A stretch of DNA of 64,000 bases from Candidatus Nealsonbacteria bacterium (lineage in GTDB: Bacteria > Patescibacteriota > Minisyncoccia > Minisyncoccales > JANBVM01), in contig CP179887.1 in assembly GCA_047456295.1 (NCBI GenBank), positions 175,159 to 239,158 of the forward strand, read 5' to 3'. Made by a program: the position numbers and the translations under genes. Of the stretch, positions 10,846 to 18,419 are shown in pieces. The notes beneath the pieces were generated by a model. That model was not told the DNA's origin and made no database searches. It saw only the letters and a program-made list of their open reading frames with translations. Every line of letters begins with the position of its first letter. Position 1 is the stretch's first letter.

Positions 10846-11925
10846 ATGACCCTTTTCACTTTTAATATAATCAGGCTCTTGTTCTTGTCTGTCTTAACAG
10901 CTGGTATTTCTTTGATTTGGGCTCGTGTCTTGATAGGTGTTTTAAAAAGAATCAAATTCTGGAAAAAACAGGCAAGAAGAAAAACAATAACCAATGACGA
11001 AGCAACTGTTTTTTATTCCTTGCATAAAGAAAGGGAGGTTAGCGTCCCCCGGGCAGGGGGAATATTAATCTGGCTTTCTGTGCTGCTCGTCATATTCTTG
11101 TTCCTTGGATTGTCTTATCTTCCCAATCCCTGGTGGTTTAAAAATATAAATTTTCTATCCCGGAATGAAACCTGGCTGCCTTTACTCACCCTGGTGGCAG
11201 GCTCTATCATTGGACTGATTGATGATGTCTTAACTGTTTATGGGAAAGGAAAATATGTTGGCGGAGGAATGAGCTTTAGTAGAAGACTGATAATGGTTGT
11301 TTTAATCGGATTGGTTGGAGCATGGTGGTTTTATTTCAAACTTGATTGGAACACAATCCATATCCCTCTTGTTTTTAATTTCCCTGAAGGAATCAATCTA
11401 TTTATTGGTCCCTGGTATATCCCTCTTTTTGTTCTGGTAATGGTAGCTTCCTGGGCAGGGGGAGTGGTTGACGGTCTAGATGGATTGTCAGGCGGTGTTT
11501 TTGCTTCTATTTTTGGTGCTTTTTCAATTATTGCTTTTAGCCAGGGAAAAGCAGATCTAGCCACCTTTTGCGCCATCATCGGTGGAGCTATATTTGCTTT
11601 TTTGTGGTTTAACATTCCGCCAGCTAAATTCTATATGGGAGAAACAGGAATCTTGGGCCTAACCTCAACAATGGCTGTTATTGCTTTTTTAACAGATTCT
11701 GTATTGGTCTTGCCTTTGATTGCCGGGGTACTGGTTATTGAGGTAGGTTCAATCATCTTACAGCTTCTGTCTAAAAAATACCTTGGTAAAAAGATATGGC
11801 TGTGCACCCCTATCCATCATCATTTTGAAGCCAAAGGCTGGCCTGCTTATCAGGTAACCATGAGGTTGTGGATTATTAGTTTTGTTTTTGCCATCTTAGG
11901 GGTAGCCATCCGTTTGTTGGGATAA
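10846..11925 (+). CDS. mraY: phospho-N-acetylmuramoyl-pentapeptide transferase
   Basis: Polytopic membrane protein with GLIDD, DGLDGLSGG and TPIHHHFE motifs. Confidence 0.93.
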   Translation: MTLFTFNIIRLLFLSVLTAGISLIWARVLIGVLKRIKFWKKQARRKTITNDEATVFYSLHKEREVSVPRAGGILIWLSVLLVIFLFLGLSYLPNPWWFKNINFLSRNETWLPLLTLVAGSIIGLIDDVLTVYGKGKYVGGGMSFSRRLIMVVLIGLVGAWWFYFKLDWNTIHIPLVFNFPEGINLFIGPWYIPLFVLVMVASWAGGVVDGLDGLSGGVFASIFGAFSIIAFSQGKADLATFCAIIGGAIFAFLWFNIPPAKFYMGETGILGLTSTMAVIAFLTDSVLVLPLIAGVLVIEVGSIILQLLSKKYLGKKIWLCTPIHHHFEAKGWPAYQVTMRLWIISFVFAILGVAIRLLG

Positions 11926-11926
11926 T

Positions 11927-13300
11927 ATGAAAGCTCAATATCTCAGGAAAAAATATCCAATATTTGTCTATAATAATTATTCTTACAAGATTTCTAATAA
12001 AAATTTAGAAATTTTTTTTGATTTTAAAATTAAACCTGATATTGTTTTCAAACCCAGGGTAACCATATTAGGTATAAAAAAACCTGAAGTTAAAAAACAG
12101 GTATTGGACAACTTAATCTTTCATTTAGGTTTAATTGAGCTCTTGAGTTATTGGAAATCAACCTGTTCGCCAGAAATTCAAATTAAGGCAGGAAGCCTGA
12201 ATAAAGACCAGATTAAATGGTGGAAAGATTTAATAATCAATGGTATGGGCCAGTTTTTTTATGAAAACAGGATTAACTGGAAAATCCCTGAATTTTTAAA
12301 AATCATCCCTCGAAAAACAAATTCCTCTACAGTGATTTTTAAAGGGAAATTAAAAAACCAGGTCTTAGTACCAGTTGGAGGAGGAAAGGATTCAGCAGTT
12401 ACCCTGGAAATGTTGAAAAAAGCAAAAAAAGACATTTACTGTTTTTCTTTGAATCCAACGAAAAATGCAATAAAACTAATGGAAATTGCTGGTTGTGACA
12501 AACAAATCATTGTAAAAAGGAACATTGACCCCAGATTATTAGAACTGAATCTTGAGGGATTTTTAAACGGCCACACTCCTTTTTCAGCTTATCTGGCTTT
12601 TTTAAGTGTTCTGGTTTCTGTAATCTTTGGGCAAAAATACATTGCTTTTTCAAACGAAAGGAGTTCAAATGAAGGAAACCTAAGGTATCTGGGAAGAGAA
12701 ATCAATCATCAGTATTCAAAGACTTTTGATTTTGAAAAAAAGTTCAAGAAATATTCAAAGAAATATTTAGTAAAACAGGCTGAGTATTTTAGTTTTCTGA
12801 GACCCTTATATGAAATTCAGATTGCCAAATTATTTTCTCAATATCCTAAGTATTTTAAATCTTTTTTAAGCTGCAATGAAGCTTACAAAACTTACTCTGG
12901 CACTAAAAAACAAACTGGAAAATGGTGTAATAGGTGTCCCAAGTGTCTTTTTATCTTTTTGTGTTTCTATCCCTTCATAAATGAAAAAGAATTAATTAAA
13001 ATCTTTGGACAAAACCTTTTTGAAAAAAAGGGGTTGTTGTCTTTGATAAAAGAATTGATTGGTGAAAAGAAATTCAAGCCTTTTGAATGCGTGGGCACAA
13101 AAAAAGAAAGCTTGACAGGTTTTTATTTAAGCTGGAAAAAAGCTAGAAAAAAAGGAAAAACCTTGTCTTTTCTTTTAAAATATTTTGAAAATACTATTTT
13201 ACCTAAATATCCTGATCTGGAAAAAGATTCTAAAAAAATGATTAATTCCTGGAACAATCAACATGATCTACCTGAAAATTTTGTAAAAATACTTAAATAG
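11927..13300 (+). CDS. PP-loop (QueC-like) ATPase-family protein embedded in the mur cluster; candidate MurL-type epimerase
   Basis: 457 aa with a VPVGGGKDSAVT PP-loop-like motif and a C-terminal Cys cluster WCNRCPKCLF. It starts 1 nt after the mraY stop. Confidence 0.55.
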   Translation: MKAQYLRKKYPIFVYNNYSYKISNKNLEIFFDFKIKPDIVFKPRVTILGIKKPEVKKQVLDNLIFHLGLIELLSYWKSTCSPEIQIKAGSLNKDQIKWWKDLIINGMGQFFYENRINWKIPEFLKIIPRKTNSSTVIFKGKLKNQVLVPVGGGKDSAVTLEMLKKAKKDIYCFSLNPTKNAIKLMEIAGCDKQIIVKRNIDPRLLELNLEGFLNGHTPFSAYLAFLSVLVSVIFGQKYIAFSNERSSNEGNLRYLGREINHQYSKTFDFEKKFKKYSKKYLVKQAEYFSFLRPLYEIQIAKLFSQYPKYFKSFLSCNEAYKTYSGTKKQTGKWCNRCPKCLFIFLCFYPFINEKELIKIFGQNLFEKKGLLSLIKELIGEKKFKPFECVGTKKESLTGFYLSWKKARKKGKTLSFLLKYFENTILPKYPDLEKDSKKMINSWNNQHDLPENFVKILK

Positions 13301-13357: not shown

Positions 13358-13672
13358 TTGACTGCACAACACATAAAAATAGAAGGGAGAGTAGAGATAG
13401 TAAATAAAAAAATATTTATTCACAACTTTCCGATTAAATTAACAGAAGGTCATCACATTTCCTTTACCTCACCTCTCTTCTTGGGAAACCAGGAATGGAA
13501 GTTAAAGAGAATGGGAGTGGGGGAACCAGGGGTTTCTATTGTTAAGAAAATCCTAGCTATTGATGGTGTGAAAAAACTCTCTATCTACTATCATAACTAT
13601 TTAGAGATAGAGACTGAAGGAAACACAAAAACTATTGCAAATGCAATAAAACTTCTAGTTAGTTCTTTATAG
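13358..13672 (+). CDS. hypothetical small protein, paralog of 14435..14728
   Basis: TTG start after RBS AGAGGTGG and a TTGACA promoter at 13301. The C-terminus ILAIDGVKKLSIYYHNYLEIET resembles LLEIPGVSEVLISANYLRIWIR of the 97-aa protein (Nfu_N-like pattern). Confidence 0.55.
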   Translation: MTAQHIKIEGRVEIVNKKIFIHNFPIKLTEGHHISFTSPLFLGNQEWKLKRMGVGEPGVSIVKKILAIDGVKKLSIYYHNYLEIETEGNTKTIANAIKLLVSSL

Positions 13673-13696
13673 AGCGGTTTAACTGCTCTTTTTTTA
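13671..13696 (+). terminator. rho-independent terminator
   Basis: AGAGCGG-TTTAA-CTGCTCT stem-loop followed by T7. Confidence 0.7.
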
Positions 13697-13729: not shown

Positions 13730-13829
13730 GGTTTTTATACTCCTTTCATTAATCATATTAGCTGGATAATATTATATGAACCAGTACAGAAGATTGACAT
13801 ATGACCCAAGAATAATATAATAAAAGTGT

Positions 13830-14054
13830 ATGAGAAGACAATTTACAGCGATTTATAAAAAAAGAGGGAGGTGGTATTTAGGTTGGGTTGAGGAAATTCC
13901 AGGGGTTAATACACAGGGAAAAACTCTTAAAGAGGTGAAAGAAAATCTCAAAGAGGCACTTTTGTTAATTTTAGAAACTAATCGGATTATTAATAAAAAA
14001 GAAATTTCTAAGGGCAGGGTTATTCGCGAGCCACTATCGATCTCTTTAAAATGA
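13830..14054 (+). CDS. hicB: HicB-family antitoxin (N-terminal domain only)
   Basis: 74 aa; YLGWVEEIPGVNTQGKTLKEVKENLKEAL matches the HicB/UPF0150 fold signature. TTGACA-N16-TATAAT promoter at about 13793-13820. ATGA overlap with hicA. Confidence 0.7.
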   Translation: MRRQFTAIYKKRGRWYLGWVEEIPGVNTQGKTLKEVKENLKEALLLILETNRIINKKEISKGRVIREPLSISLK

Positions 14055-14251
14055 AGCGCAAATACTTAATTAAGCATCTTATTAAAAATAGGTGTATTTT
14101 TATCAGAGAAGGCGCAAGACATAGCGTCTTTTTTAATCCTTTAATAAAGAAAACTTCTACTGTTCCCCGTCATAAAGAGATTGATGATTTTTTAGCAAAG
14201 AAAATTTGTCGAGATTTGGGTATAGAATCAATTAAAAAGAGGAGGAAATAA
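14051..14251 (+). CDS. hicA: HicA-family mRNA interferase toxin
   Basis: 66 aa with the pattern KYLIKHLIKNRCIFIREGARHSVFFNP...VPRHKEIDDFLAKKICRDLGI, typical of HicA (YcfA-like). Confidence 0.75.
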   Translation: MKRKYLIKHLIKNRCIFIREGARHSVFFNPLIKKTSTVPRHKEIDDFLAKKICRDLGIESIKKRRK

Positions 14252-14337
14252 ACAAAGTATAATTTATCTCTTTCTTGTCTTTTTTCTCCGGTCTCTAGCG
14301 AGAGAAAAAATATTACGAAAAAAGAACAAGGGCAGTT

Positions 14338-14385
14338 AACTGCTCTTTTTTTTATTTATTTTAGGGGCAATTCTTCCTTTGACAG
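14338..14385 (+). repeat. terminator-arm/promoter repeat, copy 2
   Basis: AACTGCTCTTTTTTTTATTTATTTTAGGGGCAATTCTTCCTTTGACAG. Its TTGACA, 17 nt and TATAGT form the promoter of the 97-aa gene. Confidence 0.8.
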
Positions 14386-14434
14386 AATTTTAAAAATCTA
14401 TTATAGTATAAATATTAGAAATAGGTGAAAGAAA

Positions 14435-14728
14435 TTGAACGTAGTAAAAGAAATTAGAATAGAGTTTCCGAAATATTCAGTTTTTTCCCGAATATACATT
14501 ACGAATAATAATATCTCAAATTTCCAGATTAGTGAGTTTGCGCAGTTTGCAAGAATGCTTGTTGCTCATAAAGACTTTGAAAAACTAGGGGATATCAAGG
14601 ATCTTCTTGAAATCCCTGGTGTTTCAGAGGTATTAATATCAGCTAATTATCTTAGGATATGGATTCGGGCAGGGTTTAGATGGGAAGATGTAGAACCCTC
14701 CATAATTGAATTCTTCTACCAAGCTTAG
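14435..14728 (+). CDS. hypothetical small protein (Nfu_N-like C-terminus), paralog of 13358..13672
   Basis: TTG start after AGGTGA. Hairpin GAGCAG...CTGCTC plus T-run downstream. Confidence 0.55.
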   Translation: MNVVKEIRIEFPKYSVFSRIYITNNNISNFQISEFAQFARMLVAHKDFEKLGDIKDLLEIPGVSEVLISANYLRIWIRAGFRWEDVEPSIIEFFYQA

Positions 14729-14790
14729 GATAAAAACTGTCTTAAAGTTCTTTAAAACAAATAATTAATGACGAGCAGTGTTATAATTTA

Positions 14791-14817
14791 AACTGCTCTT
14801 TTTTTTATTTATTTTAG
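14791..14817 (+). repeat. terminator-arm repeat, copy 3 (partial)
   Basis: AACTGCTCTTTTTTTTATTTATTTTAG lies directly upstream of murD. Confidence 0.75.
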
Positions 14818-14845: not shown

Positions 14846-16165
14846 ATGAAACTGAAACATTTAGAAAAAAGAAAAATATTAATTTTGGGTCTGGGATTAG
14901 AGGGAATAGACAGCTTTATTTTTTTGAAGAAGATTTTTCCCAAAAAGGTTTTGGGAGTAGGGGACAGGCTGAGTTTAGAGGAATTAAACAATCAGACCAG
15001 AAAACTAATTAAGGAAAACAAAGAGGTCAAACTTCATTTGGGAAAAGATTATCTCAAAGCCCTTAAAAAATATGACATTATAATCAAATCTCCGGGAATT
15101 CCTCCCAGAAGAATAAAACCCTTTTTAACAAAAAAACAAGAGGTTATATCCTCAACCAAGATTTTCTTTGATAACTGCCCGGGTAAGATTGTGGGAATTA
15201 CAGGTACAAAAGGAAAAAGCACTACTTCTTCCTTAATTTATAAAATCTTAAAAGAGAACCTTATTAAAGCTTATCTGGTGGGAAATATAGGAAAGCCAGC
15301 ATTATCTTTTTTGCTGTTAGCTAAACCAAATAATGTGTATGTTTATGAACTTTCCAGTCATCAGCTTTTAGATGTTAAAAAAAGCCCCCAGATTGCTGTT
15401 TTTTTAAATATCTATCCAGAACATTTAGATTACTACCAGGGTTTTAAAGAATACGTAAAAGCTAAAGCCAATATCGCTAAATATCAAAATAAAGAAGATT
15501 TTCTGGTTTACAATTCTGAAGATAGAATTGTCAAAGGAATTGCCCAAAAATCTAAAGCAGAGAAAATTTCCATCAATTCGGTCAAGATTAAAAATATCAA
15601 TACTCATCTGAAAGGAAAATTTAACCTCCAGAACATAAAAGCTGCAATGGCTGTGGGAAGAATCTTTAAGATTTCAGACAAAAACATTATTAAAGCTATT
15701 AAAAGATTCAAGCCTCTGCCCCATAGACTAGAATACATAGGAGTCTACAAAGGTATTAAATTTTATAACGATGCTTTAGCTACCATCCCAGAAGCTACCA
15801 TGGCTGCCTTAGATACCCTGGGACAAGATGTTCAAACCATATTCCTGGGTGGATTTGATAGGGGAAGAAAGTTTGATAAATTGGTAAAAAGGATTTCAAA
15901 AAGTAAAATAAAGAATATCATTTTATTTCAAACAACCGGAGATATAATTTGGAGAGAGATAATCTCTCAAAAAAAGGAAAAGCAATTTAAGGTTTTTATA
16001 GTACAAAACATGGAAGATGCGGTAAAATTAGGTTTTGGATTTACCAAAAAGGGTAAAATCTGTCTGCTTTCCACTGCTTCTCCCAGCTTCGGTCTTTTCC
16101 GGAATTATAAAGAAAAGGGTAACTTATTCAAGAAATACATTAAAAAACATGGCAAAGCAAGGTAG
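14846..16165 (+). CDS. murD: UDP-N-acetylmuramoyl-L-alanine--glutamate ligase (MurD family)
   Basis: Mur ligase P-loop GITGTKGKSTT; MurD-like N-terminal Rossmann segment ILILGLGLEG. Confidence 0.9.
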   Translation: MKLKHLEKRKILILGLGLEGIDSFIFLKKIFPKKVLGVGDRLSLEELNNQTRKLIKENKEVKLHLGKDYLKALKKYDIIIKSPGIPPRRIKPFLTKKQEVISSTKIFFDNCPGKIVGITGTKGKSTTSSLIYKILKENLIKAYLVGNIGKPALSFLLLAKPNNVYVYELSSHQLLDVKKSPQIAVFLNIYPEHLDYYQGFKEYVKAKANIAKYQNKEDFLVYNSEDRIVKGIAQKSKAEKISINSVKIKNINTHLKGKFNLQNIKAAMAVGRIFKISDKNIIKAIKRFKPLPHRLEYIGVYKGIKFYNDALATIPEATMAALDTLGQDVQTIFLGGFDRGRKFDKLVKRISKSKIKNIILFQTTGDIIWREIISQKKEKQFKVFIVQNMEDAVKLGFGFTKKGKICLLSTASPSFGLFRNYKEKGNLFKKYIKKHGKAR

Positions 16166-17291: not shown

Positions 17292-18419
17292 ATGAAAATT
17301 TTATTTACAGGCGGCGGTACCGGAGGCCATGTTTTACCAATAATAGCCATTGTCAGAGAGATAAGGAAGTTTTCTCCAAAGCAGAAATTTGATTTTTTTT
17401 ACATTGGTCCAAGGGACGAATTTAATAAACTCCTGCTTTCCCAGGAAGACATAAAGGTAAAAGAAGTATTAGCTGGCAAAATCAGAAGATATGTCAACTT
17501 AAAGAGTGTTTTTGAAAACCTGATAGATGTGCTGTTTAAAATACCCCTGGGTGTCTTACAAGCCTTTTTCCGCATCTTTTTTCTGAACCCTGACCTGATT
17601 TTCTCAAAAGGAGGTTTTGGTTCTGTCTCTACTGTAATAGCTGGTTGGATGCTGGGGGTACCCATATTCTTACACGAAGCTGATGCAGTCCCTGGACTGA
17701 CCAATAGGCTTTTAGCTAGGTTTTCTGTAGAGATATTTATTTCTTTTCCTAAAACCCCTTTTTTTCCTGAAGGGAAAATGATTCTGGTGGGAAATCCAAT
17801 CAGGAGAGAAATTCTGGGAGGATTAAAAAAAGAAGCTCTGGGTTTTTTAAAATTAACTGGAGAAAAGCCTGTTATCCTGGTTTTGGGCGGTTCCCAGGGA
17901 GCCCAAAGGATAAATGATAAAATCCTGGAGATATTACCCCTATTCTTAAAAGAGTTTGAACTCATTCATCAGTGCGGAGAAAACAATTTTAAGCAGGTAA
18001 AAGCTGAAGCAAAAGTAATGATAAGCAAAGATCTAGAAAAGTATTACCATTTATTTCCCTTTTTAAAAGAACAGGAGTTAAAAAGGGCTTATGCAGCCTG
18101 TGATTTGGTGGTTTCCAGGGCAGGATCAGGCACCATATTTGAAATAGCAGCTGTAGGAAAACCCTCTGTTTTAATCCCTTTGCCTGAATCAGCTCAAAAA
18201 CATCAATTTAAAAATGCCTATACCTATGCTGCCAATGGAGCTGCATTAGTACTGGAGGAAGAAAATTTCACTCCTCGTTTTTTTCTGGAGAAACTAAAAT
18301 ATCTCTCTTCTCATCCTGAAGAATTAGAAAAAATGAAGAATGCTGCCCAGGAGTTTGCCAATCCTCTGGCAGGAAAAACAATTGCTGGATATATATTATC
18401 TTATCTTTCCCCCAGCTAA
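17292..18419 (+). CDS. murG: UDP-GlcNAc:lipid I N-acetylglucosaminyltransferase
   Basis: MKILFTGGGTGGHVLP N-terminus and GT28 architecture. Confidence 0.92.
   Translation: MKILFTGGGTGGHVLPIIAIVREIRKFSPKQKFDFFYIGPRDEFNKLLLSQEDIKVKEVLAGKIRRYVNLKSVFENLIDVLFKIPLGVLQAFFRIFFLNPDLIFSKGGFGSVSTVIAGWMLGVPIFLHEADAVPGLTNRLLARFSVEIFISFPKTPFFPEGKMILVGNPIRREILGGLKKEALGFLKLTGEKPVILVLGGSQGAQRINDKILEILPLFLKEFELIHQCGENNFKQVKAEAKVMISKDLEKYYHLFPFLKEQELKRAYAACDLVVSRAGSGTIFEIAAVGKPSVLIPLPESAQKHQFKNAYTYAANGAALVLEEENFTPRFFLEKLKYLSSHPEELEKMKNAAQEFANPLAGKTIAGYILSYLSPS

Follow-up and report, generated by a model that had tools for sequence, protein, structure and literature searches.

The window analyzed here is a stretch of 64,000 nucleotides (nt) from a Candidatus Nealsonbacteria bacterium (contig CP179887.1, positions 175,159 to 239,158), and our subject is a gene of its cell-wall (mur) cluster, at positions 11927–13300. 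Sequence comparison supports its product as a relative of MurL, the ATP-driven epimerase that inverts an L-glutamate (L-Glu) already attached to the wall precursor. It is very probable that this MurL-family protein acts with a MurD of the MurD2 (L-Glu-adding) type encoded 1.5 kb downstream, so that the D-glutamate (D-Glu) of the stem peptide would be made on the precursor. The basis for this reading is the homology, the fold, the motifs, the MurD2 signature, the gene neighborhood, the fusions and the complementarity with murI (glutamate racemase), all of them from the present analysis. Likeness to MurL was measured through an NCBIfam model, and likeness to MurD2 through E. coli numbering and the residues named in a review. 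The three genes on which the argument turns are these:

10846..11925, + strand: mraY, phospho-MurNAc-pentapeptide transferase (TIGR00445 E 4.2e-46; PF00953)
11927..13300, + strand: murL-family open reading frame (ORF), ATG start, 457 amino acids, full-length match to NF041275
14846..16165, + strand: murD (TIGR01087 308.3 bits, cut-off 211.95)

The TAA stop codon of mraY ends at 11925 and, after a single base, the ATG of murL follows at 11927, which agrees with the first-pass annotation of this DNA. That annotation had also placed the gene upstream of murD. The order stands; the two genes are not adjacent, as a spacer of 1,545 nt with four small ORFs separates murL from murD, which is on the same strand. 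The NCBIfam model NF041275 (MurL_Xanthmoales; product name UDP-N-acetyl-alpha-D-muramoyl-L-alanyl-L-glutamate epimerase) matched the 457-residue protein at E 3.4e-80 with 269.7 bits. The alignment joins protein residues 12–456 to model positions 9–443 of 447 and is thus full length; it documents the homology to MurL that the first-pass annotation had suspected. The same model found murL as a single copy in the genome. PP-loop matches in a Pfam scan were all below threshold (QueC PF06508 at 18.5 bits against a cut-off of 22, and tRNA_Me_trans), and the QueC model TIGR00364 reached 13.7 bits against a cut-off of 150.3, so that the QueC models were not satisfied.

The family around this protein is large. 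A homologue search over 5.8 billion proteins gave at least 8,000 candidates, and annotations were taken from the best 120. All 120, one of them 96% identical, carry precomputed matches to PF26299 and PF26298, which the ESM Atlas (Pfam 38.1) labels MurL_N and MurL_epimerase_C, respectively. The record names among these 120 are 'hypothetical protein' at NCBI (Candidatus Nealsonbacteria or Patescibacteria) and sometimes QueC at the Joint Genome Institute (JGI). The Atlas model of the protein matches MurL clusters with a template-modeling (TM) score of 0.98; these clusters come from Actinomycetota, Saccharimonadota, Acidobacteriota, Bacillota, Bacteroidota and Pseudomonadota, and some members are fused to Mur-ligase domains. 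An exhaustive HMMER search over 1.84 billion cluster representatives returned 1,222 matches at E <= 1e-30 and 2,017 at E <= 1e-10. Closer to home, the protein is 58–72% identical to full-length matches from genomes of its own family.

An AlphaFold2 model built from a 39-sequence alignment is very confident, with a predicted local distance difference test (pLDDT) score of 95.1 and a predicted TM (pTM) score of 0.94. The parts of the protein that enter the discussion of its mechanism are as follows:

11927..12352, + strand: N-terminal domain, the MurL_N region, residues 1–142 (folded alone, pLDDT 90.0)
12353..12988, + strand: QueC-like PP-loop ATP-pyrophosphatase domain, residues 143–354, from structural alignment
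12377..12394, + strand: PP-loop motif GGGKDS, residues 151–156, predicted binding site for the ATP alpha/beta-phosphates
12872..12946, + strand: cysteines C316, C334, C337 and C340 (CNRCPKC), invariant in 39 sequences, within the QueC-aligned part
13088..13090, + strand: C388 in a KPFECVGT motif (P385 and C388 invariant; G390, T391 and E394 at least 90% conserved)

The central domain is where structural comparison is most informative. VIA-align superimposed the model on Cap9 (9nto_B) at Z 13.1, with a root-mean-square deviation (rmsd) of 2.2 over 165 aligned residues (model 144–348), and on QueC (3bl5_A) at the same Z of 13.1, with an rmsd of 3.4 over 182 residues (model 143–354); further PP-loop ATP pyrophosphatases matched at Z of about 10. 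Foldseek likewise gave QueC 3bl5_A as the best match in the PDB (E 6.8e-5, TM by target 0.69), along with QatC, QueC 2pg3, TtuA and Cap9. A sequence search of the PDB found no solved MurL structure and a weak match to the PP-loop of TtuA (E 0.014). For the N-terminal 142 residues, the structural search reached a best Z of 6.4 (a designed protein; RNase H-like and sugar-kinase-like subdomains), which lies within the stated noise of the tool, and no fold is therefore assigned to this domain. With QueC (3bl5, 2pg3) and with Cap9 (9nto) and QatC (9y01) of anti-phage systems, the protein shares, at 15–17% identity, the PP-loop core and the C-terminal cysteine cluster. Unlike QueC, MurL adds the N-terminal domain and a C-terminal helical part; its substrate is another one, and its outcome is epimerization whereas that of QueC is nitrile formation.

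Conservation falls on the same elements. In the PP-loop, which aligns to that of TtuA, G153 and D155 are invariant in the 39 sequences, and for G152 and K154 conservation is 90% or higher. The reading of the first-pass annotation, a 457-residue frame with a GGGKDS-type PP-loop and a CxxCxKC cluster, thus holds, and both motifs are conserved beyond chance in these 39 family members, which come from many phyla. Further invariant residues are F41, G68, E71, Y75, W76, K77 and N114 in the N-terminal domain, and H216, S246, H261, Q262, S264, K265, E270, R292, S315, N317, W333 and K339 in the rest of the protein.

QueC adenylates a carboxylate with ATP and holds a zinc ion by four cysteines. By analogy, C316, C334, C337 and C340 are probably a structural zinc site, as in QueC. 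In peptide chemistry, oxazolone formation is a familiar cause of the racemization of activated N-acyl amino acids. From this background we infer where adenylation takes place, which residues bind zinc and which are catalytic, and an oxazolone step in the scheme that follows. MurL would bind ATP at the GGGKDS PP-loop of its QueC-like domain and adenylate the free alpha-carboxylate of the terminal L-Glu, with release of pyrophosphate. Such activation would render the alpha-proton acidic, possibly by way of an oxazolone formed with the Ala-Glu amide, and reprotonation would take place from the opposite face. C388 or the invariant histidine and lysine residues may handle the alpha-proton, C388 being a candidate acid/base for the inversion at C-alpha. 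A cell with this enzyme would need neither free D-Glu nor glutamate racemase. The reaction, the conversion of one ATP to AMP and the L-to-D direction are known from the literature on the enzymes of Xanthomonas, Micromonospora and Salinispora; two reviews state that MurL spends one ATP, yields AMP, runs from L to D only and 'lacks known conserved domains' (PMC8788868, PMC5808125). The modeled fold, that of a carboxylate-adenylating PP-loop enzyme, fits this AMP-forming, L-to-D reaction. The QueC-like fold and the short list of invariant residues would give a concrete mechanism to an enzyme that reviews describe as being without known domains.

The second line of evidence is the MurD. Near the glutamate, D182, K348, A414 and L416 of E. 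coli MurD correspond to E197, R358, P433 and F435 of X. oryzae MurD2, and the E197D/R358K double mutant of the latter becomes a D-Glu ligase (PMC8788868). The literature numbering of the E. coli K-12 protein equals the gene numbering minus the initiator methionine, which we calibrated on K115, E157, H183 and K198. On alignment to E. coli MurD, the corresponding codons in the window are:

15419–15421, + strand: E192 of MurD
15860–15862, + strand: R339 of MurD
16082–16084, + strand: P413 of MurD
16088–16090, + strand: F415 of MurD

These residues occupy E. coli positions 182, 348, 414 and 416, and all four are those of MurD2. The proposal of the first-pass annotation that this MurD might be a MurD2 is hence supported by its pocket residues, at the level of sequence. 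The Pro/Phe pair at 414 and 416 is less diagnostic, as F or Y also occurs in relatives that lack MurL. The window MurD resembles X. oryzae MurD2 in all four of the contrasted residues (Glu, Arg, Pro, Phe); it differs in that NCBIfam still assigns it to TIGR01087, the general equivalog for murD (308 bits).

We compared 41 genomes from the family and the order to which the window genome belongs, this genome included. MurL was matched in 30 of them. For the comparison of MurD we used 30 proteins, from the window and 29 relatives; most of the others were skipped for weak murD matches or matches cut by a contig end, and one genome (G030) was left out because its best Mur-ligase locus held no MurD-grade match. 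The pair E182 and R348 was present in every MurL-bearing genome of this set (22 of 22, with the window). In the eight genomes lacking MurL, position 182 was D in seven and A in one (G021), and position 348 was K in six, R in one (G038) and N in one (G021). The murD neighborhood holds murL in most relatives; in G024 (L017) and G040 (L018), which lack MurL, it holds instead a murI-type gene, adjoining a murD with the canonical D182 and K348. MurI thus resembles MurL in supplying the D-Glu of the stem peptide and, in these two relatives, in adjoining murD. It differs in its unrelated fold, its independence of cofactor and ATP, its free amino acid substrate and its reversibility, and it is the usual source of D-Glu. 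PF01177 exceeded its cut-off in three of the 41 genomes: these two and G031, which bears MurL. We rejected the G031 protein as a MurI, since it belongs with the racemases of the asp_race/cysteate-racemase type (146.8 bits with TIGR00035 versus 44.5 bits with TIGR00067). In a quick maximum-likelihood tree of the MurD proteins, the MurL-lacking genomes lay among the MurL-bearing ones; four label changes were needed, only one of them forced by well-supported branches.

The genome of the window is a single contig of 689,429 bp, 97.16% complete. Six-frame searches of it returned nothing at E <= 1 for glutamate racemase (TIGR00067; PF01177), the absence for which the first-pass annotation had advised looking, and nothing at E <= 1 for class-IV aminotransferase (PF01063, the fold to which D-amino-acid aminotransferase belongs). 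As controls, TIGR00067, PF01177 and PF01063 were matched in 11, 14 and 13 of 14 control genomes, respectively. Alanine racemase (Alr) was also without a match in the genome (TIGR00492 and PF01168), and TIGR00492 was matched in none of the 41 genomes of the order. Ddl, which is the D-Ala-D-Ala ligase, was not found in the genome, an apparent match being rejected as biotin carboxylase; TIGR01205 was matched in three of the 41, all three without MurL. Just beyond the end of the window lies a gene for a MurF-like ligase (249 bits).

The complementarity with murI extends beyond the order. Our sample for this was 401 Patescibacteria genomes with a completeness of 90% or more. The MurL profile had matches at E <= 1e-3 in 108 of them; 66 of these matches were full length (E <= 3.9e-63), and the others were weak matches to the PP-loop region alone. 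TIGR00067 was matched in 159 of the 401 at E <= 1e-5, with 123 over the cut-off. No genome of the 401 had both a full-length MurL and a murI over the cut-off, where about 20 would be expected under independent assortment, with the caution that the relatedness of these genomes inflates any test of independence. Among the 66 MurL-bearing genomes, 13 had weak partial matches to the racemase superfamily only (TIGR00067 E 6.5e-15 to 8.2e-6). About half of the 401 carry neither MurL nor murI. Penalver and co-workers are said to have described, in 2024, an active MurI from Ca. Saccharimonas aalborgensis, a bacterium of the Candidate Phyla Radiation (CPR). We also considered, and rejected, a tie between the presence of MurL and the loss of Ddl: Ddl (E <= 1e-30) was found in 27 of 66 MurL-bearing and 189 of 335 MurL-lacking genomes, and its presence in those 27 indicates that its lack is a trait of lineages and is not tied to MurL.

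A scan of GTDB, with one genome per species and an alignment of nine MurL sequences as the query, gave at least 600 stretches, 584 of which encode a relative; the best 80 were analyzed. These 80 loci come from many CPR lineages and from metagenome-assembled genomes labeled as Acidobacteria, Rokuibacteriota, Methylomirabilia, Binatia, Bacteroidales, Clostridium, Lachnospiraceae, Delta- and Gammaproteobacteria, Actinomycetota and a cyanobacterium. Xanthomonas is not represented among them. In 68 of the best 80, a MurD match follows murL on the same strand or lies in the same frame, and 64 of these MurDs could be scored. Of the 12 loci without a MurD match, several end just past murL, and in at least two murD lies farther off. 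Among the 64 scored MurDs, E182 was found in 58, R348 in 61 of the 63 having that residue, and both in 56; some of the 80 loci come from the same genomes as the set of 30 MurDs, so that the two sets overlap. The first-pass annotation had allowed that this family might co-occur with unrelated pathways; it travels with murD instead.

Gene fusions join the same partners. Among the best 150 cluster representatives, 36 are at least 741 amino acids long. Mur-ligase domains are present in 35, where MurL can stand at either end, and MurB domains in the remaining one. In this last protein (P0175, 791 amino acids) the MurB domains precede MurL; in P0157 (932 amino acids) it is preceded by a Mur ligase whose catalytic domain is PF01225. 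Open frames of at least 774 amino acids hold 14 of the 66 MurL matches of the Patescibacteria sample. Within the order itself, G015 has an 846-residue frame containing both MurL and MurD.

Compared with X. oryzae MurL, the window protein is alike in its full-length homology, its MurD-type partner, its length (457 residues versus the 447 positions of the model) and a genome in which neither murI nor class-IV aminotransferase was found. It is unlike the X. oryzae enzyme in a score below the equivalog cut-off, in its Nealsonbacteria-like CPR host, whose group is outside the published range of MurL, in a murD that lies 1.5 kb off behind inserted genes, and in that it is known here from sequence.

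Several points weigh against the proposed pathway. The 269.7 bits do not reach the equivalog cut-off of NF041275, which is 700 bits and was set for Xanthomonadales; because it fits one gammaproteobacterial order, the shortfall lowers the NCBI equivalog status and not the family membership. No assayed CPR MurL was found in the literature. The 64 murL-adjacent MurDs include exceptions to the signature, with D182 in four, G182 in two and K348 in two, and a fused protein (L092) has D at position 182. The spacer between murL and murD carries terminator-like hairpins and strong promoter-like sites, and murD is not translationally coupled to murL. Since the genomes of the order are related, and a single label change is forced, the counts of co-variation are not independent events. 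Three relatives that are 96–100% complete (G022, G033 and G038) have a MurD with D182, along with K348 in two and R in G038, and neither MurL, murI nor class-IV aminotransferase was found in them, so that another source of D-Glu exists in the order. Finally, as neither Alr nor Ddl was found in the window genome, the missing D-amino-acid genes may in part mean dependence on a host.

Some of these points lend themselves to another explanation, one that we judge quite improbable, in which the MurL-family enzyme has a different task, its substrate being, for instance, some other intermediate of the stem peptide or peptides that are recycled or scavenged, and MurD uses D-Glu from a host. The lack of matches to Alr and Ddl suggests a wide reliance on outside D-amino acids, the 1.5 kb between murL and murD has its own promoter-like sites, and there are relatives with MurD and none of the three D-Glu routes found. 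This explanation is opposed by the four MurD2 residues of the window MurD, by the E/R pair, which tracks MurL in all 22 related genomes, by MurL–MurD fusions in many lineages, and by the exclusion of full-length MurL and over-cut-off murI across the 401 genomes. It is hard to credit that murL is a remnant, decaying or out of use. In favor of this are the very small genome and the entry of a HicAB pair and of repeated terminator units into the cluster; the frame, however, is intact and full length with all family-invariant residues kept, the identity within its own family and the very confident model speak for a maintained protein, and no other route to D-Glu was found in the genome. Least credible is that the protein is a QueC, or a different PP-loop enzyme that modifies nucleosides or tRNA, and sits in the mur cluster by chance: the QueC-like core, the sub-threshold Pfam matches and the JGI names for some homologues would suit it, but the protein scores 13.7 bits with TIGR00364 versus 269.7 over the full length of the MurL model, has an N-terminal domain of 142 residues and a C-terminal helical part outside the coverage of QueC, and belongs to a family in which murD follows in 68 of the best 80 loci and all 36 long fusions examined join Mur enzymes.

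The pathway in which MurL and a MurD2-type MurD make D-Glu on the precursor can also be carried further, to a proposal that we regard as unlikely. The order would then make no free D-amino acid for its wall. A QueC-fold enzyme would generate D-Glu on the nucleotide precursor, adenylating the terminal alpha-carboxylate of the peptide and inverting it, perhaps through an oxazolone; C388, H216, H261 and K265 would be the candidates for handling the proton. For the D-Ala-D-Ala end there would be another on-precursor route, or the stem peptide would be a different one, in place of simple scavenging.

The features of the spacer and the region past murD are these:

13358..13672, + strand: small ORF of 104 amino acids, TTG start, with a homologue between murL and murD in G005 (L030 2300–1986)
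13830–14054, + strand: HicB-like antitoxin (PF21748 E 2.3e-6)
14051–14251, + strand: HicA toxin (PF07927 E 3.3e-9)
14435..14728, + strand: small ORF of 97 amino acids, TTG start, weakly Nfu_N-like (PF08712 E 1.3e-5, below cut-off)
17292..18419, + strand: ORF of 375 amino acids, the second past murD

The 97-residue ORF has a homologue between murL and murD in G008 (L033 1904–2221), and for both it and the 104-residue ORF these homologues matched at E of about 5e-12. Kinship of the two ORFs with each other was rejected (E 1.1). The HicB/HicA pair had no counterpart in the related murL–murD loci searched, which gives it the look of a recent arrival in the cell-wall cluster. A terminator-like unit, TTAACTGCTCTTTTTTT, stands at 13679–13695, 14336–14352 and 14789–14805, once after each small-gene unit of the spacer; there are no other copies in the window, and none of 100 shuffles reached three. 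Two of the copies run on into a 53-nt stretch that is 85% identical and has a TTGACA box, and promoter-like sites of 12/12 and 11/12 follow at 13794–13821 and 14379–14407. The repeated units suggest small gene cassettes inserted one by one. The two ORFs past murD read, from their translations, as ftsW and murG.

The pathway and the enzyme go back to Feng et al. (2017), as that work is described in the two reviews (PMC8788868, PMC5808125). The published range of MurL comprises genera of Xanthomonadales, three alphaproteobacterial genera and four genera of rare actinomycetes (PMC8788868); a review of 2018 also names a fungus, cyanobacteria and an amoeba as having weak orthologues (PMC5808125). 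A 2021 review describes the MurD2/MurL route as confined to a rather small number of genera and suggests aiming narrow-spectrum antibiotics at it (PMC8788868). A search of the open-access literature, with subscription journals outside its scope, yielded no paper that connects MurL or MurD2 to CPR bacteria or Patescibacteria. The MurL route is thus already known, with curated models in NCBIfam and Pfam 38.1, and its spread is far wider than the searchable papers say. It is the usual route in this Nealsonbacteria-like order (30 of 41 genomes); a full-length MurL is present in 66 of the 401 Patescibacteria, and the family extends to Acidobacteria, Bacteroidales, Clostridia and others. This wide distribution weakens the premise of a narrow-spectrum antibiotic. 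For the CPR bacteria, the route fills a gap in metabolic reconstructions, where the records of this family read 'hypothetical protein' at NCBI or, in some JGI entries, QueC.

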